Below, in pieces: positions 5,613 to 39,486 of a stretch of 39,767 bases of DNA (positions within the stretch are counted from its first letter, which is position 1; the number at the start of each line of letters is the position of its first letter). The position numbers were made by a program, and so were the translations under genes. The notes under the pieces are model-generated. The model was not told where the DNA came from. It ran no database searches and worked only from the letters and a program-made list of their open reading frames with translations. Source of the stretch: a phage. The stretch lies in sequence record PV935351.1. One strand, 5' to 3'.

Positions 5613-5662
5613 GACTCAAGGTCATGACTCAAAGTCGTGGCCTTCATGATTAACCCTAACTC
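5611..5662 (+). ncRNA. conserved structured RNA element, copy A (candidate RNase III site)
   Basis: TAGACTCAAGGTCAT, 11 variable nt, GTGGCCTTCATGATTAACCCTAACT; the same element recurs at 12952 and 36562. Confidence 0.55.
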
Positions 5663-5682: not shown

Positions 5683-5862
5683 ATGTATCAGAACACTATC
5701 AACTTCGAGCGAATCCGTGAACGTCAGCAGACTGAAGACTACATTCCGAAGGGACGCAAGCTGAACAAGACCAAGCGTGGCGGCGGTGTCAAGGGTGCTT
5801 TCCGTAACGCTGAAGGCAAAGACTCTATGGTAAACCAAGAGAAGTATTTCGTAGGAGCGTAA
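5683..5862 (+). CDS. 1.1: gp1.1-like small basic protein
   Basis: 59 aa; KGRKLNKTKR matches recalled T7 gp1.1; GGAG RBS. Not in the ORF track (under 60 aa). Confidence 0.7.
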   Translation: MYQNTINFERIRERQQTEDYIPKGRKLNKTKRGGGVKGAFRNAEGKDSMVNQEKYFVGA

Positions 5863-5865
5863 GAC

Positions 5866-6117
5866 ATGAGTAAACGTTGGCTATTCGACGCATCCACGAG
5901 CCAGTGGTCAGCGGTAGGCCGGACTCACCGCGCGATGAGTGAGGCAGGACTTGATGTCCTAATGGATTACTCGCCGTTCCCCGGAAAAATTCTGGTCAGA
6001 GTAATTGAAGCAGATGGTGGGAGGCTTCTGGTCTCCAGAGAATTTACCGAAGATGAAATCTTTAACTGTGAGCAATGGTGCTTACAACAATTGAACGCTT
6101 ATAGGAGCTGGAAATAA
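5866..6117 (+). CDS. 1.2: gp1.2-like protein (T7 gp1.2 inhibits host dGTPase)
   Basis: 83 aa, same size and position as T7 gp1.2, ends ...NAYRSWK (T7 ends ...DWK). Confidence 0.7.
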   Translation: MSKRWLFDASTSQWSAVGRTHRAMSEAGLDVLMDYSPFPGKILVRVIEADGGRLLVSREFTEDEIFNCEQWCLQQLNAYRSWK

Positions 6118-7169
6118 TGACAACGACTATCAAAACTAACCCGCACCGCGCTGTAGATTACTCTGAGTCTGGCGTTAAGAAGGCACTGGAAGCAGCCGGG
6201 TCGCTTGAAGCTGAAGTGAAGTACGATGGCGTCCGGTTGAATCTTCCGGTCTTCCCTACTGGTGAGACCCAATGGTTGAGCCGTGAGTCTAAACCTCTCC
6301 CAGCCCTTAGCTGGTTGAACACTTCCGGTCAGGACATAGGAGCTACCAAAGCGAGCGACTGGCGGTGGTTCCTGAAGCAAGCTGGCTATGAAGGGACTGG
6401 TCTGATGATTGATGGCGAGGTCATGGTGAAAGGGGTTGACTTCAACACGTCTTCGGGCCTCATCCGCACGAAGTATGTCAAGTCTAAAAACTACGACTTC
6501 CACGATGGCGATTGGGACCTCAAGTCCAAGACTACTCAGTTCCGGCTGGACCGAGACCATATCAAGGTGGTCGTCTACGGTGTAGTGGACCTTAACGTCA
6601 TCCTTGACCCGAAAGCCGAAGGTCCTATCCATAGCGTCACACGCCTGAAGGCCGAAGCTATCGTCCCTCTCCTCCAGAAATACTTCCCGGAAATCGACTG
6701 GGTTCTGTCTGAGTCACACACGGTCTATGACCTTGAGTCGCTCAGCTCCCTGTACGAAGAGAAGCGGCTGGAAGGACATGAGGGTCTGGTAGTCAAGGAC
6801 CCGCTTGGTAAATACAAGCGTGGCAAGAAGTCAGGCATGTGGAAAATGAAGCCTGAGGAGACCATCGACGGGACCGTGTGTGGCCTAGTGTGGGGGACTC
6901 CGGGCAAGGCTAACGAAGGTAAGGTGATTGGCTTTGAGGTGCTGCTTGAGGATGGCATGGTGGTTAACGCTTGTGGCCTGACTGAAGAACAGAAGGATGA
7001 GTTTACGGAAGCCTGTAACACTGATACATATATCCTCGGTGAAATCAATCCATACGAAGGCTGGCAGTGTGAAGTCCTTTTCATGGAGAGGTTCCCTGAT
7101 GGCTCACTCCGTCACCCTAGCTTCAAGTGCTGGCGCGGGACGGAAGACAACCCGACCGTTAAGAGTTAA
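6117..7169 (+). CDS. 1.3: ATP-dependent DNA ligase
   Basis: 350 aa; adenylation motif I KYDGVR at residues 35-40; T7 gene 1.3 position. Confidence 0.95.
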   Translation: MTTTIKTNPHRAVDYSESGVKKALEAAGSLEAEVKYDGVRLNLPVFPTGETQWLSRESKPLPALSWLNTSGQDIGATKASDWRWFLKQAGYEGTGLMIDGEVMVKGVDFNTSSGLIRTKYVKSKNYDFHDGDWDLKSKTTQFRLDRDHIKVVVYGVVDLNVILDPKAEGPIHSVTRLKAEAIVPLLQKYFPEIDWVLSESHTVYDLESLSSLYEEKRLEGHEGLVVKDPLGKYKRGKKSGMWKMKPEETIDGTVCGLVWGTPGKANEGKVIGFEVLLEDGMVVNACGLTEEQKDEFTEACNTDTYILGEINPYEGWQCEVLFMERFPDGSLRHPSFKCWRGTEDNPTVKS

Positions 7170-11068: not shown

Positions 11069-12948
<1,880 letters not shown>

Positions 12949-12951
12949 GTC

Positions 12952-12998
12952 TAGACTCAAGGTCATTCACATCGAGTGGCCTTTATGATTAGACTAAA
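12952..12998 (+). ncRNA. conserved structured RNA element, copy B (candidate RNase III site)
   Basis: TAGACTCAAGGTCAT, 9 variable nt, GTGGCCTTTATGATTAGACTAAAC. Confidence 0.55.
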
Positions 12999-13413: not shown

Positions 13414-15572
13414 GTAACGTATATGGGTCTGACATCGAGACCAACGGTCTCCTTGATACAGTCTCCCAGTTTCACTGTGGGGTCCTGATTAACGCCGAGT
13501 CGAATGAGACCCTTAAGTATGGGGTAGCTCCGATGGTCGGTATCGTCGGTGGCTTCAAAGAGTATGTACAGAAGGTGGAAGAGATTGCCGCATCACCTGA
13601 TGGTATGCTGGTATTCCACAACGGTATCAACTATGACGTCCCGGCTATTGACAAGCTGAAGCGTCTGTACTTTGGGAAACGCTTTAACTTCCCGAAACAC
13701 AAGATGATTGATACCTTGGTGCTTGGGCGCTTGATGTATCCAAACATTAAGTTCTCAGACATGGGCGCAGTGAAAGCTGGTCGTCTGCCACCTAAGATGA
13801 TGGGACGCCAGTCTCTTGAGGCTTGGGGCTATCGTCTCGGTGAGATGAAAGGTGAGTACAAACACGATTACGTTGCCAAGTGCAAGGCTGAAGGTATCGA
13901 ATATAAGGCTGGGGACGAATGGTTGTTCCCATCTCAGGAGATGCTAGACTATAACGTTCAAGACGTTGTGGTCACACTGGCGTTGTTCAAGAAGTTCCTG
14001 ACTGACAAGTATTACTTCCAGTCTGAACAGTTCGCTTTCGACCAGATTTATGCGTTGCGTCTGGAACATGATGCTGCGTGGACCTGTGCGAAGATGGAAC
14101 GTAACGGCTATCCGATGAACACCGAGATGGTCGAAGGCTTATATCGTGAACTCACCGTCAAACGTGCAGAGTTGTTGGACAAGCTGCGTTCGACTTTCGG
14201 TAGCTGGTATGCACCAAAGGGAGGCAAGGAGTTCTTCAAGCACCCACGGACAGGCAAGGACCTTCCGAAGTATCCGCGAGTCGTGTATCCTAAGGTCGGG
14301 TCAGTATTCAAGAAGCCGAAGAACAAAGCTCAACGCTTAGGTCTGGAACCTTGCGAGTTCGACTCACGAGACACGATGGAGGGAGCGCCGTTCACACCTA
14401 TCACTTACGTTGAGTTTAATCCGGGAAGCGGGGACCACTTAGCGAAAGTCCTGATGGAGCGTGGCTGGGAGCCTGTGGACTTCACTGACACCGGGAAACC
14501 TGTAGTCGATGACGAGACGTTAGAACACGTTAAGTTACCAGACGAAGAGGCTCAGGCTTGCGTAGAGCTGGTCCGTGAGTACCTGGTAGTCCAGAAGCGC
14601 ATCGGTCAGGCTGCTGAAGGTAAGAACGCATGGTTGAAACTTGTAGGTCCAGACGGACGTATGCACGGTTCAATCAACCCATGCGGTGCAGTAACAGGAC
14701 GTGCGACTCATAGTTCACCAAACATGGCTCAGGTCCCTGCTAACGGTGCTCCGTATGGTGAGATTTGCCGGGGTGCTTTCGGTGCAGCTTGGAACAAGAC
14801 GGATGGTAAGCCAGACCCTTGGATTCAAGTGGGTGTGGATGCTTCAGGTCTTGAGCTTCGTTGTCTGGGGAACCGAGCGGCTCCGTTTGATGGTGGTGCC
14901 TATGCGAAGACTGTGGTAGAAGGCGACATCCACTGGGCCAACGCAGTAAACGCTGGGTTAGCACCTAACGTCCCACGCGATAAGGCGAACCACGACCATG
15001 ATGCTTTCCGTAACAACGCTAAGACGTTCATCTATGCGTTCCTGTATGGTGCAGGGGCCGCTAAGATTGGACTGATAGTAGGCGGTGGTAAGAAGGAAGG
15101 TTCAGCTCTCATGAAGAAATTCATTGAGGGTACACCAGCCATCAAAGACCTCAGGGAAGCTGTGAGTAGTACGTTAATCTCAGACTCTAAGTGGGTGGAC
15201 GGAGAGAACATCGTCAAGTGGAAACGCCGTTGGTTGCGTGGACTTGATGGTCGCCGTATCCACATCCGGTCGCCACACTCAGCACTGAACGCCTTACTTC
15301 AAGGCGATGGTGCGGTAGTCTGTAAGCACTGGATTGTCGAGACTGAACGTATGCTTGAAGAGGCAGGGTATGTTCACGGCTGGGAAGGAGACTTTGCGTA
15401 CATGGCATGGGTTCACGACGAATTGCAGATTGCGTGCCGTACTCAGGAGATTGCCGAAGAAGTAGTCAAGATTGCTCAACTTGCTATGCGTAAGGTGGGT
15501 GAGTTCTATAACTTTAAATGTGTCCTTGATACCGAAGGTAAGATTGGACCAACGTGGAAGGAGTGTCACTAA
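13404..15572 (+). CDS. 5: DNA polymerase (family A, T7 gp5 type)
   Basis: 722 aa; N-terminal exonuclease motif SDIETNGL; LEAWGYRLGEMKGEY, KTFIYAFLYGAG and YMAWVHDE match recalled T7 gp5. Confidence 0.98.
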   Translation: MDLSNVYGSDIETNGLLDTVSQFHCGVLINAESNETLKYGVAPMVGIVGGFKEYVQKVEEIAASPDGMLVFHNGINYDVPAIDKLKRLYFGKRFNFPKHKMIDTLVLGRLMYPNIKFSDMGAVKAGRLPPKMMGRQSLEAWGYRLGEMKGEYKHDYVAKCKAEGIEYKAGDEWLFPSQEMLDYNVQDVVVTLALFKKFLTDKYYFQSEQFAFDQIYALRLEHDAAWTCAKMERNGYPMNTEMVEGLYRELTVKRAELLDKLRSTFGSWYAPKGGKEFFKHPRTGKDLPKYPRVVYPKVGSVFKKPKNKAQRLGLEPCEFDSRDTMEGAPFTPITYVEFNPGSGDHLAKVLMERGWEPVDFTDTGKPVVDDETLEHVKLPDEEAQACVELVREYLVVQKRIGQAAEGKNAWLKLVGPDGRMHGSINPCGAVTGRATHSSPNMAQVPANGAPYGEICRGAFGAAWNKTDGKPDPWIQVGVDASGLELRCLGNRAAPFDGGAYAKTVVEGDIHWANAVNAGLAPNVPRDKANHDHDAFRNNAKTFIYAFLYGAGAAKIGLIVGGGKKEGSALMKKFIEGTPAIKDLREAVSSTLISDSKWVDGENIVKWKRRWLRGLDGRRIHIRSPHSALNALLQGDGAVVCKHWIVETERMLEEAGYVHGWEGDFAYMAWVHDELQIACRTQEIAEEVVKIAQLAMRKVGEFYNFKCVLDTEGKIGPTWKECH

Positions 15573-17083: not shown

Positions 17084-17157
17084 TTTACTGGGTCGGACTT
17101 CTGGCCCTTTACTGCATGTACAAGTGGTTCGGGTCGAACAACCGTCCTAAACACTGA
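17065..17157 (+). CDS. hypothetical small hydrophobic peptide (gene 6.3 position)
   Basis: 30 aa MDTIHVIYWVGLLALYCMYKWFGSNNRPKH; AAGGAGG RBS 8 nt upstream. Confidence 0.4.
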   Translation: MDTIHVIYWVGLLALYCMYKWFGSNNRPKH

Positions 17158-17209
17158 GTCTAACCGATAGTCATATCCTATCAATCCAACAGTCATCCAT
17201 AGGTGGAAC

Positions 17210-17232
17210 ACTAAACTATCACTATAGGGACT
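17210..17232 (+). promoter_or_regulatory. phage RNAP promoter
   Basis: CTAAACTATCACTATAGGGAC, +1 G at 17227; flanked by a 9-bp inverted repeat (17169-17177 / 17244-17252). Confidence 0.8.
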
Positions 17233-17293
17233 TTAGGACCTAAGATATGACTATAAGATAGACTTTAGTCTTAACTTAAAGAGGAGATTCAAG

Positions 17294-18466: not shown

Positions 18467-20035
18467 ATGGCTGAACGTGAAGGGTTCGCTGCTGAAGGAG
18501 CCAAAGCGGTCTATGACCGCCTGAAGAACGGTAGACAGCCATATGAGACACGCGCTCAGAATTGTGCTGCTGTCACTATCCCGTCACTGTTTCCTAAGGA
18601 GTCCGACAACTCGTCTACTGAGTACACCACTCCGTGGCAAGCTGTAGGTGCTCGCTGTTTGAACAACTTGGCTGCAAAGCTGATGTTGGCGTTATTCCCT
18701 CAGTCACCGTGGATGCGACTTACAGTCTCCGAATATGAGGCTAAGACCTTGAGTCAGGACTCAGAGGCTGCTGCTCGTGTTGACGAGGGGCTTGCTATGG
18801 TCGAGCGTGTGTTGATGGCCTACATGGAGACAAACAGTTTCCGTGTGCCATTGTTCGAAGCTCTGAAACAGCTTATAGTCTCCGGTAACTGTCTGCTCTA
18901 CATTCCAGAGCCTGAACAGGGAACCTACAGTCCCATGCGAATGTACCGCTTAGTGTCTTACGTTGTTCAACGTGATGCGTTCGGTAACATCTTGCAGATT
19001 GTGACTCTCGACAAGGTAGCGTTTAGTGCTCTACCGGAAGACGTGAAGTCTCAACTCAACGCAGACGACTATGAGCCTGACACCGAGCTGGAAGTGTATA
19101 CGCACATTTACCGTCAGGACGACGAATATCTACGCTACGAGGAAGTGGAAGGCATTGAGGTAGCAGGGACCGATGGTTCTTACCCACTGACTGCCTGTCC
19201 ATACATCCCGGTACGAATGGTTCGACTGGACGGTGAAGACTATGGTCGCTCTTATTGCGAGGAGTATCTGGGAGACCTGAACTCGCTGGAGACGATTACA
19301 GAAGCTATCACCAAAATGGCTAAGGTAGCCTCCAAGGTGGTGGGCCTCGTTAACCCGAACGGTATCACGCAACCTCGTCGTCTGAACAAGGCGGCTACAG
19401 GTGAGTTCGTGGCTGGTCGCGTTGAGGACATCAACTTCCTGCAACTGACGAAAGGTCAGGACTTTACGATTGCCAAGTCGGTGGCTGATGCTATCGAGCA
19501 ACGTTTAGGCTGGGCCTTCCTTCTTAATAGTGCTGTTCAGCGTAATGCCGAGCGAGTCACTGCTGAAGAGATTCGTTACGTTGCTGGTGAACTGGAGGCG
19601 ACCTTAGGTGGCGTGTACTCTGTACAGTCACAAGAGCTTCAGTTACCTATCGTCCGTGTGCTGATGAACCAACTTCAGTCTGCTGGCATGATTCCTGACC
19701 TTCCGAAAGAAGCGGTTGAGCCTACGGTATCCACTGGTCTGGAAGCGTTAGGTCGTGGTCAGGACTTGGAGAAGCTAACTCAGGCAGTCAACATGATGAC
19801 CGGGCTACAGCCTCTGCAACAGGACCCAGACATTAACTTGCCCACCCTTAAGCTGCGACTGCTGAATGCCTTAGGCATTGATACTGCTGGTCTTCTGCTG
19901 ACTCAGGACGAAAAGATGCAACGTATTGCTGAACAATCCGCTCAAGGAGCTGTGGTCAACGGTGCGTCTGCTGCTGGTGCTAATATGGGCGCTGCTGTAG
20001 GTCAGGGAGCTGGTGAGGACATGGCTCAAGCCTAA
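18467..20035 (+). CDS. 8: head-to-tail connector (portal) protein
   Basis: 522 aa; PYETRAQNCA, TPWQAVGAR, YRLVSYVVQRDAFGN, ACPYIPVRMVRLDGEDYGRSY match recalled T7 gp8. Confidence 0.97.
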   Translation: MAEREGFAAEGAKAVYDRLKNGRQPYETRAQNCAAVTIPSLFPKESDNSSTEYTTPWQAVGARCLNNLAAKLMLALFPQSPWMRLTVSEYEAKTLSQDSEAAARVDEGLAMVERVLMAYMETNSFRVPLFEALKQLIVSGNCLLYIPEPEQGTYSPMRMYRLVSYVVQRDAFGNILQIVTLDKVAFSALPEDVKSQLNADDYEPDTELEVYTHIYRQDDEYLRYEEVEGIEVAGTDGSYPLTACPYIPVRMVRLDGEDYGRSYCEEYLGDLNSLETITEAITKMAKVASKVVGLVNPNGITQPRRLNKAATGEFVAGRVEDINFLQLTKGQDFTIAKSVADAIEQRLGWAFLLNSAVQRNAERVTAEEIRYVAGELEATLGGVYSVQSQELQLPIVRVLMNQLQSAGMIPDLPKEAVEPTVSTGLEALGRGQDLEKLTQAVNMMTGLQPLQQDPDINLPTLKLRLLNALGIDTAGLLLTQDEKMQRIAEQSAQGAVVNGASAAGANMGAAVGQGAGEDMAQA

Positions 20036-22317: not shown

Positions 22318-22321
22318 TTGA

Positions 22322-22361
22322 AACCCCTTGGGTGCCTTCGGGTGCTTGAGGGGTTTTTTTG
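22322..22361 (+). terminator. late terminator (Tphi-like)
   Basis: AACCCCTTGGG...CTTGAGGGGTTTTTTTG; GC-rich hairpin plus U7 tract, close to recalled T7 Tphi. Confidence 0.85.
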
Positions 22362-22373
22362 CTTAAAGTGAGG

Positions 22374-22469
22374 ATGATTATGTTTTACTTACTTACAGCC
22401 TTGGGACTATTTGTTAGTTTCTGGGCGATTATATTATTAACCGGACCATGCAGTCCTTACGACAGATAG
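22374..22469 (+). CDS. hypothetical small hydrophobic peptide between Tphi and gene 11
   Basis: 31 aa MIMFYLLTALGLFVSFWAIILLTGPCSPYDR; GTGAGGATG RBS; one predicted TM helix. Confidence 0.35.
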   Translation: MIMFYLLTALGLFVSFWAIILLTGPCSPYDR

Positions 22470-22477
22470 GAGGGAGT

Positions 22478-23044
22478 ATGGCTCAATACATTCCACTGAA
22501 TGCTAACGATGACTTAGACGCTATCAACGATATGTTAGCTGCTATCGGTGAACCGGCAGTCCTACAGCTTGACGAGGGGAACGCTGACGTCTCGAACGCC
22601 CAACGTATCCTGCATCGTGTCAATCGTCAGGTCCAAGCTAAAGGCTGGAACTTTAACATCAACGAAGCTGCTGTCCTGACACCTGATGTCCAAGACAATA
22701 GGATTCGATTCTTGCCGTCATACCTTCGTGTAATGACCGCTGGGGCCACCAGCTACTACAGCAACATGGGTGGATACCTGTACGACCTGTCCACTCAGTC
22801 GACCACTTTCACCGACCCTATCACGGTAGAGCTTGTGGAGATGAAGCCATTCTCAGAGATGCCTGTGGTCTTCAGGGACTACATCGTCACTAAAGCTAGC
22901 CGTGAGTTCAACGCTAAGTTCTTCGGTAGCCCAGAGTCTGAACTGTACCTTCGTGAGCAGGAAGCAGAACTCTATCAGCAGGTCATGGAATACGAGATGG
23001 ATACTGGTCGCTACAACATGATGTCCGACATTGGGAGAGACTAA
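22478..23044 (+). CDS. 11: tail tubular protein A
   Basis: 188 aa from ATG 22478 (AGGAGGGAG RBS); GEP, VMTAGATSYYSNMGGYLYD, IVTKASREFNAKFFG, EYEMD match recalled T7 gp11. Confidence 0.93.
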   Translation: MAQYIPLNANDDLDAINDMLAAIGEPAVLQLDEGNADVSNAQRILHRVNRQVQAKGWNFNINEAAVLTPDVQDNRIRFLPSYLRVMTAGATSYYSNMGGYLYDLSTQSTTFTDPITVELVEMKPFSEMPVVFRDYIVTKASREFNAKFFGSPESELYLREQEAELYQQVMEYEMDTGRYNMMSDIGRD

Positions 23045-25401
23045 TGCCACTAATTACTCAATCAATCAAGAACCTTAAGGGTGGCATTAGCCAACAGCCT
23101 GACATACTGAGGTTCTCAGACCAAGGCGAGTCACAGGTTAACTGCTGGTCATCAGAGAGTGATGGCCTCCAGAAGCGTCCACCTACAGTCTTCAAGCGAC
23201 GTCTTAACATCGACGTTGGGAGCAACCCTAAGTTCCACCTGATTAACCGTGATGAGCATGAGCAGTATTACATCGTGTTCAATGGGTCCAACATTCAGGT
23301 AGTTGACTTGAGTGGTAATCAATACTCAGTGTCAGGTGCGGTAGATTACGTTAAGTCCTCCAACCCACGAGATGACATCCGTGTCGTTACCGTGGCAGAC
23401 TATACGTTCGTCGTTAACCGTAAGGTTGTCGTCAAAGGTGGAAGCGAGAAGTCACACTCTGGTTATAACCGCAAAGCACGAGCTTTAATTAACCTGCGTG
23501 GTGGACAGTATGGTCGAACCCTTAAGGTGGGAATCAACGGTGGCGTTAAGGTATCGCATAAGCTACCAGCAGGTAATGATGCCGAGAATGACCCGCCTAA
23601 GGTGGACGCTCAAGCCATTGGTGCAGCTCTGAGAGACCTTCTTGTTACTGCCTACCCTACCTTCACGTTTGGCCTTGGGTCTGGATTCCTGCTAATCACA
23701 GCTCCTTCAGGGACCGATATTAACTCAGTGGAGACGGAGGATGGCTACGCTAACCAGCTAATAAGCCCAGTCCTAGACACTGTGCAGACAATCTCTAAGC
23801 TGCCTCTTGCGGCTCCAAATGGATACATCATTAAGATTCAAGGTGAGACCAACAGTAGCGCCGATGAATACTACGTGATGTATGACTCCAACACTAAGAC
23901 GTGGAAGGAGACAGTGGAGCCGGGAGTTGTCACTGGGTTCGATAACACCACAATGCCACACGCTCTGGTACGACAAGCTGATGGCTCCTTTGAGTTCAAG
24001 ACTCTGGATTGGTCCAAGCGTGGTTCTGGTAACGATGACACAAACCCTATGCCTAGCTTCGTGGATGCTGCGATTAATGATGTGTTCTTCTACAGGAACA
24101 GACTTGGGTTCTTGTCGGGTGAGAACGTAATCATGAGCCGTTCAGCCAGCTACTTTTCGTTCTTCCCTAAGAGTGTGGCGACACTGAGTGATGATGACCC
24201 TATTGATGTAGCTGTAAGTCACCCTCGAATCTCAATCCTTAAGTATGCCGTTCCGTTTAGCGAGCAGCTGCTACTTTGGTCGGATGAGGTTCAGTTCGTG
24301 ATGACAAGCTCTGGGGTCCTTACCTCGAAGTCTATCCAGCTTGATGTAGGCTCAGAGTTTGCCTTAGGCGACAATGCCAGACCGTTCGCTGTAGGACGCT
24401 CAGTCTTCTTCTCGGCTCCTCGTGGGTCATTCACCAGCATTAAGCGATACTTCGCTGTAGCTGATGTGTCTGATGTGAAGGATGCTGATGATACAACCGG
24501 TCACGTATTGTCCTACATCCCTAACGGGGTGTTTGATATTCAAGGTACAGGGACTGAGAACTACATCTGCGTCAACTCTACAGGTGCATACAACCGTATC
24601 TACATCTACAAGTTCTTGTTTAAGGATGGCGTACAACTTCAAGCCTCTTGGTCACACTGGGAGTTCCCTAAAGATGATAAGATTCTGGCGTCTGCCTCTA
24701 TTGGCTCTACCATGTTCATCGTTCGTCAGCATCAAGGAGGGGTAGACATTGAGCACCTTAAGTTCATCAAGGAGGCAACTGACTTCCCGTCAGAGCCATA
24801 TAGACTACACATTGACTCCAAGGTGTCTATGGTAATTCCAATTGGCTCATATAATGCTGACACCTATAAGACTACGGTTGACATTGGTGCTGCTTATGGT
24901 GGCAACGCTCCGTCTCCCGGTCGGTACTATCTGATTGACAGTCAGGGTGCTTATGTGGACCTTGGGGACTTGACCAGTATCTCTACTGTGATTACCCTCA
25001 ACGGCGATTGGTCAGGACGTACAGTGTTCATCGGACGGCCCTATCTGATGTCCTACAAGTTCTCACGGTTCCTGATTAAGATTGAAGATGATAGTGGCAC
25101 TCAGTCTGAAGACACTGGTCGTCTACAGCTTCGTCGGGCCTGGGTCAACTACAAGGACACTGGCGCTCTGAGACTCATTGTCAGAAACGGTGAGCGAGAG
25201 TTCGTTAACACCTTTAATGGGTACACCCTTGGTCAGCAAACCATAGGGACTACTAACATTGGTGACGGGCAGTATCGCTTCGCTATGAATGGTAACGCAT
25301 TAACCACGAGTCTAACCTTAGAGTCGGATTATCCTACCCCAGTGTCCATCGTTGGGTGTGGCTGGGAGGCGTCATACGCTAAGAAAGCTCGTTCCGTCTA
25401 A
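23044..25401 (+). CDS. 12: tail tubular protein B
   Basis: 785 aa; QSIKNLKGGISQQPDILR, HLINRDEHEQYY, VTVADYTFVVNR, RLQLRRAWVNY, GCGWE match recalled T7 gp12. Confidence 0.97.
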   Translation: MPLITQSIKNLKGGISQQPDILRFSDQGESQVNCWSSESDGLQKRPPTVFKRRLNIDVGSNPKFHLINRDEHEQYYIVFNGSNIQVVDLSGNQYSVSGAVDYVKSSNPRDDIRVVTVADYTFVVNRKVVVKGGSEKSHSGYNRKARALINLRGGQYGRTLKVGINGGVKVSHKLPAGNDAENDPPKVDAQAIGAALRDLLVTAYPTFTFGLGSGFLLITAPSGTDINSVETEDGYANQLISPVLDTVQTISKLPLAAPNGYIIKIQGETNSSADEYYVMYDSNTKTWKETVEPGVVTGFDNTTMPHALVRQADGSFEFKTLDWSKRGSGNDDTNPMPSFVDAAINDVFFYRNRLGFLSGENVIMSRSASYFSFFPKSVATLSDDDPIDVAVSHPRISILKYAVPFSEQLLLWSDEVQFVMTSSGVLTSKSIQLDVGSEFALGDNARPFAVGRSVFFSAPRGSFTSIKRYFAVADVSDVKDADDTTGHVLSYIPNGVFDIQGTGTENYICVNSTGAYNRIYIYKFLFKDGVQLQASWSHWEFPKDDKILASASIGSTMFIVRQHQGGVDIEHLKFIKEATDFPSEPYRLHIDSKVSMVIPIGSYNADTYKTTVDIGAAYGGNAPSPGRYYLIDSQGAYVDLGDLTSISTVITLNGDWSGRTVFIGRPYLMSYKFSRFLIKIEDDSGTQSEDTGRLQLRRAWVNYKDTGALRLIVRNGEREFVNTFNGYTLGQQTIGTTNIGDGQYRFAMNGNALTTSLTLESDYPTPVSIVGCGWEASYAKKARSV

Positions 25402-25408
25402 CTTATTG

Positions 25409-25458
25409 AAGGGCCTATAGATTTACCTTAACTATCACTATAGGGACTATAGGCCCTT
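25409..25458 (+). other. 12-bp perfect inverted repeat enclosing the gene 13 promoter (candidate RNase III site)
   Basis: AAGGGCCTATAG (25409-25420) / CTATAGGCCCTT (25447-25458), 26-nt loop containing promoter positions -17 to +3. Confidence 0.6.
25426..25448 (+). promoter_or_regulatory. phage RNAP promoter
   Basis: CCTTAACTATCACTATAGGGAC, +1 G at 25443. Confidence 0.8.
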
Positions 25459-25477
25459 AAGGTTATAAGGAGACTTT

Positions 25478-25954
25478 ATGTATATTCGCAAGGCTACGGA
25501 ACCAGATGTCCACTACTTTCTGCGGCATCTTTCAGCAGATGATGTTAATGAGTGCAAAGCAAACTACGGGTCAACCGTTGGTCTCTCTGAAAGACTGCTT
25601 AAGCACCTATCTCCGTCATCTGTGGTTTTAACGAACGGTGTAGGCGAAGTGTTTGCCTATGGTGGAAACCAAGGGGATAACGTATGGTTCTTGACTTCTG
25701 GTCTTGTCTATAAGCTGAGACCTAAAGAGAAGCGAGAGTTCATAAAGCGTATCTCTGAGTACAGGGACTTAATGTTAGACCAATACGGGACCATCTGGAA
25801 CTACGTGTGGTCAGGCACTAAGTCTCACATTAAATTCTTGAAGTTGCTTGGGGCTAAGTTCCATGATGATTGGACTGTAAGTCCGGTAACTGGTGAGCGT
25901 TTTCAACTATTCACTATCTCTAAGGAGGACGTATGTGCGAGCCAATTAGCATAG
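25478..25954 (+). CDS. 13: internal virion protein, gp13 position
   Basis: 158 aa; assigned by synteny between genes 12 and 14; GGAG RBS. No motif matched from memory. Confidence 0.7.
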   Translation: MYIRKATEPDVHYFLRHLSADDVNECKANYGSTVGLSERLLKHLSPSSVVLTNGVGEVFAYGGNQGDNVWFLTSGLVYKLRPKEKREFIKRISEYRDLMLDQYGTIWNYVWSGTKSHIKFLKLLGAKFHDDWTVSPVTGERFQLFTISKEDVCASQLA

Positions 25955-26520
25955 GCATGGGTGTACTGTCTGTAGCCGGGGCCACTATGTCCGCATCCCA
26001 GCAGGCCAAGGCCGAAGGTGCAGCAATTGACGCTCAGAACCGACAGGCTCAGGAAATGGTTAAGCAGATGAACTACTCTGACGCCAACCTGAAGATGCAG
26101 GAGCGAGACCTGAAGGAGCAGCAGATGGCTGAACTGACAGAGACAACGCTCAACGGTATCCGCAATCAGGGTATGGTCAGAGCTGCGGTGGCTGAGTCCG
26201 GTCTGGAAGGTAACTCTATGGACAGGATTGAACGTCAGGTAGAAGGAGATACCGTCAAAGAGCGGGCAGGGATTACCGAAAGTTACAACCGCGACTATGC
26301 GGCTATCTTCGGGAACCGTATCGCCAACATTGAGAACACCAAGTCTGCTATCCGTGGTCAAGGTAAAATCATCAAGACCAGCCCACTGGCCCATGCACTT
26401 AATGTTGCTAACGCCGGGATGCAAGGTTACGCCGCTGGTAAGTCAATCTCTGGAGCGTCCAGCTCTGGTGGTGCTGCACCAATTAGTGCTGCTAAAGGCA
26501 CACCTACAGGTCATAGCTAA
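25933..26520 (+). CDS. 14: internal virion protein B
   Basis: 195 aa; MC start, LEGNSMDRIERQVEG, NYNRDYAAIF, ISAAKGT resemble recalled T7 gp14. Confidence 0.9.
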   Translation: MCEPISIGMGVLSVAGATMSASQQAKAEGAAIDAQNRQAQEMVKQMNYSDANLKMQERDLKEQQMAELTETTLNGIRNQGMVRAAVAESGLEGNSMDRIERQVEGDTVKERAGITESYNRDYAAIFGNRIANIENTKSAIRGQGKIIKTSPLAHALNVANAGMQGYAAGKSISGASSSGGAAPISAAKGTPTGHS

Positions 26521-36561: not shown

Positions 36562-36611
36562 TAGACTCAAGGTCATTACTATATGTAGTGGCCTTTATGG
36601 TTAACACTAAC
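36562..36611 (+). ncRNA. conserved structured RNA element, copy C (candidate RNase III site)
   Basis: TAGACTCAAGGTCAT, 11 variable nt, GTGGCCTTTATGGTTAACACTAACT; sits where T7 has the R18.5 site. Confidence 0.6.
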
Positions 36612-38877: not shown

Positions 38878-38926
38878 TAACTATAGGCGAAAGCTGCATG
38901 AATAAGCAGTTAGTAACCTATAGTTA
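38878..38926 (+). other. 10-bp perfect inverted repeat downstream of gene 19
   Basis: TAACTATAGG (38878-38887) / CCTATAGTTA (38917-38926), 29-nt spacer; the arms resemble the promoter 3' half (ACTATAGG). Confidence 0.5.
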
Positions 38927-39357: not shown

Positions 39358-39399
39358 CTAAGGTCAGTACGTGGATACAGACCCACTCTACTGACCTTA
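39358..39399 (+). other. 12-bp perfect inverted repeat near the right end
   Basis: CTAAGGTCAGTA (39358-39369) / TACTGACCTTAG (39388-39399), 18-nt spacer; about 165 bp left of the right DTR. Confidence 0.6.
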
Positions 39400-39486
39400 G
39401 CTACTGTAGTCAAGGACTTTAGGTAACACCTTAAGAGAAGCTCACTTAGGGTCATCCTACTTATTGGTCTATCCTAGTGTCGCCTG

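Follow-up and report, generated by a model that had tools for sequence, protein, structure and literature searches.

A probable K1F-lineage form of the T7-group RNase III site R13 around the late promoter phi13 of a Kayfunavirus genome

The DNA analyzed here (sequence record PV935351.1; the whole stretch of 39,767 nt is called the window) belongs to a K1F-like phage of the genus Kayfunavirus (Studiervirinae, the T7 subfamily), and from the RNA polymerase gene through the terminase gene the 39.8-kb window had its genes in the T7-type order. Around the hairpin described below, the window shared 97-98.6% identity with Escherichia phages vB_EcoP_F, K1F and many other Kayfunavirus. The locus of interest is the spacer between genes 12 and 13, which holds the phage RNA polymerase promoter phi13 and, further downstream, the ribosome-binding site of gene 13 (Table 1). 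The promoter showed one mismatch to TAAACTATCACTATAGGRA, and its full match to the K1F promoter consensus extended over 25428-25446; this consensus was matched 11 times on the + strand of the window against 0.02 matches expected. The same site was annotated as a promoter or as "phi13" in the records of ASO2B, CR44b and EcoDS1, which mark the promoter only, and no hairpin annotation was present in 60 sampled K1F-like records or in that of K1F.

Table 1. Positions of the features at and around the gene 12-13 spacer, with the related hairpins of the window
Feature	Position	Strand	Remark
Terminator Tphi	22320-22357		Terminator scan
Gene 12 stop codon	25399-25401	+	
Candidate lower stem, 5' strand UAACUU	25399-25404	+	Includes gene 12 stop UAA; pairs with 25460-25465
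Gene 12-13 spacer	25402-25477		76 nt
Left (5') arm AAGGGCCUAUAG	25409-25420	+	Promoter positions -34 to -23; missing from phi13-started transcripts
Loop, 26 nt, promoter positions -22 to +4	25421-25446	+	
Promoter phi13 (-17 to +6)	25426-25448	+	Phage RNA polymerase promoter; +1 = 25443
phi13 promoter core CACTATAGGGA	25436-25446	+	
Right (3') arm CUAUAGGCCCUU	25447-25458	+	Promoter positions +5 to +16; in read-through and phi13-initiated RNA
Predicted RNase III cleavage zone	25459-25463	+	By analogy with T7 stem ends and reported cleavage coordinates
Candidate lower stem, 3' strand AGGUUA	25460-25465	+	
Gene 13 ribosome-binding site AAGGAG	25467-25472	+	Downstream of hairpin, context
Gene 13 start codon	25478-25480	+	Downstream of hairpin, context
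AAGG...CCUU hairpins of the window	5618-5644, 12959-12983, 36569-36595, 39360-39398, 25409-25458	Transcribed strand	

The promoter scan of the window detected no phage promoter between Tphi and 25443, and because of this every transcript of gene 12 stems from read-through and runs on into the hairpin. Likewise, genes 11 and 12 of T7 are expressed solely via read-through of Tphi (PMC5592923, after Dunn and Studier 1983). Between Tphi and gene 11, an ORF of 29 codons (22380-22469) was also observed, with GAGGA as its Shine-Dalgarno-like sequence, and its product was, by our own reading, the hydrophobic peptide MFYLLTALGLFVSFWAIILLTGPCSPYDR. The mechanical ORF start of gene 11 at 22448 overlaps this small ORF, and the true gene 11 start is probably the ATG at 22478.

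A previous sequence-only reading of this DNA had described a perfect 12-bp hairpin at 25409-25458 whose loop contains promoter positions -17 to +3. The hairpin was confirmed, with arms AAGGGCCTATAG and CTATAGGCCCTT complementary at 12 of 12 positions and 26 nt between them, and the placement of the promoter was essentially right, the loop covering -22 to +4; the promoter by its usual definition (-17 to +6) reaches 2 nt into the right arm. It was also correctly stated that transcripts started at 25443 are without the left arm, as only the right arm (+5 to +16) is included in them. The left arm lies outside the -17 to +6 promoter, and therefore its conservation is not explained by promoter function. 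The sequence ACTATAGG occurs twice in direct orientation, once in the promoter core (25437-25444) and again at the right arm (25446-25453). The loop was weakly structured, with a 5-bp CCUUA/UAGGG pairing that was not conserved.

The RNA from 25395 to 25475 was predicted to fold with -27.8 kcal/mol (z = -3.7), and 0 of 200 shuffles were equally stable. When the whole window was shuffled with dinucleotides preserved, perfect 12-bp inverted repeats with a loop of 3-60 nt appeared at 0.19 per shuffle, and 14% of the shuffles contained at least one, while the count expected in this 76-nt spacer was about 4e-4 by our own arithmetic. Given 0.19 repeats per shuffled genome, one that brackets the promoter in a 76-nt spacer is therefore not a product of chance. 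An enclosing clean helix was found at none of the other 10 promoters of the window, which leaves phi13 alone among the 11. No Rfam family reached its gathering score in a scan of the whole window.

Below the 12-bp stem, a candidate lower stem UAACUU/AGGUUA of 5-6 bp contributed -1.4 kcal/mol. The corresponding columns of alignment A2 (1-5 with 63-67) were paired in 96% of cells, with a U-A/U-G alternation at one pair and 0 double changes, and RNAfold proposed CUUAU/AUAAG as an alternative lower stem. The asymmetry of the internal loop in the window, with the 5' side larger than the 3' side, was opposite to that of classical sites. General features of RNase III substrates are about two helical turns, coaxial stacking of short helices, and internal loops that confine the cutting to one strand (PMC1540722). 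The short lower helix may extend the 12-bp stem to roughly two helical turns. An effect of the structure on gene 13 translation was considered as well, in which the ribosome-binding site would be masked in read-through RNA and set free by cutting or by initiation at the promoter. Its predicted unpaired probability was 0.47-0.60 in all RNAs compared (read-through, phi13-initiated and cut RNA), the masking helix was not conserved in relatives, and control of gene 13 translation was rejected.

The inverted repeat was maintained in relatives, one of the points on which the sequence-only reading had been prepared to give up its proposal. Among 23 viral contigs found through gp13, 22 retained the core GGCCTATAG...CTATAGGCC, and the conserved unit consisted of the 9-bp core GGCCUAUAG/CUAUAGGCC plus flanking pairs. 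The 82-nt spacer was present in 221 phage records, 109 of these at an identity of at least 99%. The same arms enclosed a loop promoter with a different specificity region in L019, L025, L049 and L177, and single-side mismatches in the stem were found in L162 and L031. In the divergent members L177 and L178 the stem was lengthened inward to 15 bp and so took in -3 to +4 of the promoter. The outer G-C pair (25411:25456; A2 columns 13 and 58) was broken in 13 of 20 distinct related spacers, and AAGG was interrupted by a U.C mismatch (AAUGG or AUUGG) in 13 of the 20 distinct K1F-type variants; pairing at all 12 positions is a feature of the K1F subtype. For the 20 distinct K1F-type spacers, 93% of cells were paired, the same as in shuffles, and compensatory double changes in the stem numbered 0. 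The K1F-group stem is thus conserved as sequence, the covariation test is uninformative within the group, and the conservation of the stem could have causes other than pairing.

Elsewhere in viral contigs, the arm pair was found only in K1F-like spacers and in unrelated chance matches, e.g. collagen-like repeats. The metagenome scan, which combined the promoter with the start of the right arm, gave a few extra K1F-like variants and many unrelated repeats, with 0 compensatory changes. Two metagenome contigs (L143 and L157) contained tandem 9-mer arrays that resemble the promoter core (CACTATAGG/GACTATAGG/AACTATAGG, many copies); these arrays are unrelated to phage promoters and were retrieved through the search pattern alone. 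Spacers of Kayfunavirus type at 87-100% identity were also noticed in PV615262.1, OR786095.1, PV904160.1 and LC799501.1, whose labels name Acinetobacter, Staphylococcus, Klebsiella and Morganella as the phage hosts. For genomes of K1F-like coliphages, the first two of these hosts seem questionable.

The comparison was extended across Studiervirinae with 80 contigs collected via the conserved gp12 C-terminus together with T7, T3, phiYeO3-12 and the window, which gave 49 distinct gene 12-13 spacers. In the minimum-energy folds of 47 of these 49, an upstream arm paired with the promoter or with the first transcribed bases. The 3' arm was the promoter itself (about -12 or -7 to +7) in most lineages, including T7, T3-like, K11-like and others, and arms flanking the promoter were seen in the K1F group and, as an independent case, in L061. 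Pairing at -12 to -8 involved 2-5 canonical types, which tracked the promoter of the lineage. When arms and promoters of 12 lineages were swapped, the mean energy changed from -22.7 kcal/mol for native combinations to -13.6 kcal/mol for swapped ones, and 0 of 20,000 permutations were as good as the native arrangement. RNAalifold predicted 13 consensus pairs for the T7-type subset, 4 of them with compensatory changes. G-U pairs were frequent in the arm-promoter helices, one of them invariant in 12 of 12 sequences, and the helix therefore exists on the transcribed strand only, which suggests an RNA structure rather than a DNA cruciform.

Two further arrangements were seen in these spacers. In L061 and L062 (IMGVR_UViG_2974581333 and 2974510153), a phi13-type promoter lay in the loop of a hairpin (-22.3 kcal/mol) with the unrelated arms ACCCUAUG...CAUAGGGU. 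The spacers of L087, L101 and L105 were without arm-promoter pairing, and immediately past the gene 12 stop, ahead of the promoter, they carried a G+C-rich hairpin, GGCCCUUCGGGGCC, followed by UCUU, which has a terminator-like look.

The base of the window hairpin was compared with that of known RNase III sites by a scan for hairpins whose stem starts with AAGG and ends with CCUU. In T7, the scan recovered hairpins at 866-887, 1441-1465, 5861-5884, 6421-6445, 11178-11202, 13867-13889 and 18515-18560, and the AAGG...CCUU base was common to R0.3, R0.5, R1.1, R1.3, R3.8, R4.7 and R6.5. The T7 cleavage coordinates reportedly given by Dunn and Studier in 1983 are 890, 1468, 5887, 6448, 11203, 13892 and 18563, and they fall 1-3 nt 3' of the AAGG...CCUU stem ends (R0.3-R6.5). 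Six of the 10 T3 stem-loops annotated as RNase III sites were recovered by the same scan. On the transcribed strand of the window, 5 hairpins of this kind had stems of 10 bp or more, where 0.08 would be expected.

Compared to the classical sites (R0.3, R0.5, R1.1, R1.3, R4.7 and R18.5), the window hairpin was likewise intergenic, on the transcribed strand and provided with an AAGG...CCUU upper stem of 8-12 bp. Differently, small loops of 3-6 nt, conserved flanks and a lower stem of greater length characterize the classical sites, and they adjoin promoters or overlap promoter edges without enclosing them, whereas the window hairpin encloses phi13. The classical flanks (ACUC before AAGG and UAUGAUUA after CCUU) were absent at the window hairpin, where UUAUUG preceded AAGG and AAGGUUAU followed CCUU.

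Among the other hairpins of the window, those at 5618-5644, 12959-12983 and 36569-36595 were of the classical RNase III type with the common sequence AGACUCAAGGUCAU...GUGGCCUUYAUGRUUA. The first followed the RNA polymerase gene, just downstream of the promoter with +1 = 5607, the second followed the primase/helicase gene and the third preceded the Rz-like gene; they are likely the counterparts of T7 R1.1, R4.7 and R18.5. A second perfect 12-bp inverted repeat, CTAAGGTCAGTA/TACTGACCTTAG with a 19-nt loop, was located at 39358-39400, past the last promoter (+1 = 38980) and close to the right end; it bears the AAGG...CCUU signature of T7-group RNase III sites and folds with about -29 kcal/mol when its flanks are included. 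In addition, a perfect 10-bp inverted repeat, TAACTATAGG/CCTATAGTTA with a 29-nt loop, was found at 38878-38926 just upstream of the rightmost promoter, and each of its arms holds a promoter-core-like AACTATAGG, in opposite orientations.

Two annotated elements of the T7 group resembled the window hairpin, one in position and one in architecture. In the curated T3 record, the stem_loop 25443..25480, "RNase III recognition site R13", overlaps promoter phi13 (25457..25479), and in the phiYeO3-12 record a "putative RNase III site R13" (26209..26246) lies over the promoter at 26223..26245. For T7, the T7 RefSeq and V01146 feature tables list promoters and no RNase III sites; according to PMC5592923 (after Dunn and Studier 1983), RNase cleavage is weak at R13, an accepted site, and strong at R6.5. 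R13/phi13 of T7, T3 and phiYeO3-12 share with the window the gene 12-13 spacer, the promoter, a 5' arm upstream of it and a full hairpin that is formed in read-through RNA only. The geometry differed, as the upstream arm pairs with -12 to +7 in T7, with -7 to +7 in T3 and with +5 to +16 in the window, so that the promoter itself is the 3' arm in T7 and T3 but lies in the loop in the window. Moreover, the AAGG...CCUU base of the window is absent from T7/T3 R13, and the arms are without sequence similarity. L177 and L178, with the stem reaching inward to -3, are intermediates between the two geometries.

The architecture of the window hairpin was closer to that of R6.5. In T7, R6.5 consists of AAGGUCCCUA, a 26-nt loop with phi6.5, UAGGGGCCUU and a 9-bp lower stem, and the window site of AAGGGCCUAUAG, a loop of equal length with phi13, CUAUAGGCCCUU and a candidate lower stem of 5-6 bp. 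Common to T7/T3 R6.5 and the window were the AAGG start and CCUU end, a loop of about 25-26 nt that carries a complete promoter, a right arm starting a few nt past +1, and promoter-initiated RNA without the left arm; a lower stem lies beyond an internal loop in R6.5, and a candidate for one in the window. The upper stem has 10 bp in T7/T3 R6.5 and 12 bp in the window, and the classical ACUC / UAYGAUUA flanks of R6.5 are missing in the window. R6.5 precedes gene 6.5 whereas the window site precedes gene 13, which makes it an analogue and not a positional counterpart. Since R6.5 is strong, a large loop that holds a promoter, on a stem of about 10 bp, would by analogy make a workable substrate. 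In the T3 record, R6.5 (17135..17206) wholly contains phi6.5 (17160..17182), and R1.1/phi1.1, R1.3/phi1.3, R3.8/phi3.8 and R13/phi13 overlap; overlap of promoter and RNase III site is therefore routine in the T7 group. At the phi6.5 position of the window (17180-17265), a promoter with +1 = 17227 followed the exonuclease gene without an AAGG...CCUU hairpin, and only a weak interrupted helix, AGUCAU-UAGGU...ACCUA-AUGACU (-12 kcal/mol), was present. The K1F type seems to be without the classical R6.5 of T7 and T3.

Taking together the sequence, the predicted fold, its conservation, the matching of arm and promoter, and the positional and architectural match to annotated sites, the hairpin is probably the K1F-lineage form of the T7-group RNase III site R13 around the late promoter phi13. 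The earlier suggestion of a candidate RNase III site on read-through RNA was thus strengthened, as far as sequence comparison goes, by the R13 annotation of T3 and phiYeO3-12, the AAGG...CCUU base and the R6.5 layout. Genes 11 and 12, with no promoter of their own, would be transcribed only by polymerases reading through Tphi, and each read-through transcript would enter the gene 12-13 spacer and fold into the 12-bp helix AAGGGCCUAUAG/CUAUAGGCCCUU, whose 26-nt loop is phi13 in RNA form. Host RNase III would then cut the 3' side at the base of the upper stem, at about 25459-25463. The cut would leave the gene 11-12 message with a protective hairpin at its 3' end and set free a second message, from gene 13 onward; a 3' hairpin is known to protect upstream RNA (PMC1540722). 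Transcripts started at phi13, with the right arm only, would be unable to form the site and would not be processed. We infer the cleavage, the cut position and the effect on mRNA stability from the analogy with T7 and T3. T7 grows without RNase III (PMC6938266), and therefore the fitness effect of the site may be small.

The main alternative, which we consider unlikely, is a hairpin that acts on read-through RNA without being cleaved, either as a barrier to 3' exonucleases after some other end-forming event or by binding RNase III only. The stable and conserved stem agrees with such a role, and so do the lower stem, internal loop and flanks, which are unlike those of classical cleaved sites. 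G-C pairs are present near the stem base in the window, and G-C pairs beside the scissile bond, as well as certain motifs, permit binding and suppress cleavage (PMC1540722); the R13 of T7 itself is weakly cut (PMC5592923). However, efficiently cut sites of T7 have the same AAGG...CCUU base and the R6.5 layout that the window hairpin resembles, and at this place the terminator scan offered no other end-forming signal such as a terminator. A role in the DNA is less probable still: a cruciform or protein-binding palindrome might modulate phi13, or the right arm might be initially transcribed sequence plus a leftover core duplication with incidental complementarity. Such a role would fit arms that are conserved as sequence in the K1F group with 0 compensatory changes, a right arm (+5 to +16) with a second copy of the promoter core ACTATAGG, in a region whose sequence can influence promoter escape, and a single-stranded DNA fold of the element (-11.5 kcal/mol) better than that of shuffles (z = -3.5). 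It is opposed by the left arm (-34 to -23), which is outside the known promoter, and by the upstream arm that changes with the promoter across lineages while pairing is kept. Moreover, the G-U pairs of the helix are A-C mismatches on the other strand, a 26-nt spacer disfavours cruciform extrusion, and the other 10 promoters of the window have no comparable repeat.

The sequence-only reading had also offered a pause site as an alternative, and this part did not hold. A signal at which the phage RNA polymerase pauses or terminates, ending gene 11-12 transcription just before phi13, would suit a stable hairpin at the end of a transcription unit, but the stem is followed by CCCUUAAGGUUAUAAGG without a U-run or any terminator-like feature. 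The scan that detected Tphi (22320-22357) gave nothing at 25409-25458, no class II pause motif of the ATCTGTT type was visible in the local sequence, and the homologous elements of T3 and phiYeO3-12 are annotated as RNase III sites and not as terminators, which makes this reading very improbable. A class I intrinsic terminator, i.e. a G+C-rich hairpin followed by a U run, was rejected in view of AAGGUUAUAAGG after the stem. Least credible is a functionless inverted repeat that arose by chance and was carried along with the conserved promoter and ribosome-binding site. Although a perfect 12-bp inverted repeat does occur somewhere in 14% of shuffled genomes, the low count expected in this spacer, its retention in 22 of 23 relatives, including those with another promoter in the loop, and like pairing at the same place in nearly all Studiervirinae lineages speak against it, and judged by these sequence comparisons a chance origin is effectively refuted.

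For the K1F-type R13 favored here, a tentative and rather doubtful evolutionary history may be proposed. An ancestral weak site of the T7 R13 type, with the promoter as 3' arm, might have been rebuilt in the K1F lineage into a classical, probably efficient site of the R6.5 type through duplication of the ACTATAGG core, which provided a new downstream arm, while the classical phi6.5 hairpin was lost. If true, RNase III sites around T7-group promoters would be evolutionarily mobile modules, the main point of late-mRNA processing would differ between K1F-like phages and T7, and the promoter-in-loop version of L061 (ACCCUAUG/CAUAGGGU) would be convergent.

A promoter within or overlapping an RNase III hairpin, with processing of read-through RNA only, is long known for T7 and T3. 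The literature searched contained no cleavage data for K1F-like phages, and what is new is modest, namely an unannotated K1F-group site at the R13 position with R6.5-type geometry. Its significance beyond annotation is small, and no new question is opened by it. With the finding, more than 200 K1F-like genomes, several of which are used in phage therapy and engineering, gain a regulatory element that had not been annotated, and in refactoring or cargo insertion between genes 12 and 13 it should be considered that phi13 lies within a probable processing signal. The comparison across lineages is also an example of selection for an upstream arm complementary to the promoter of each lineage, and this matching of arm and promoter supports the long-standing view that promoter-initiated RNAs are deliberately spared from processing in T7-group phages.
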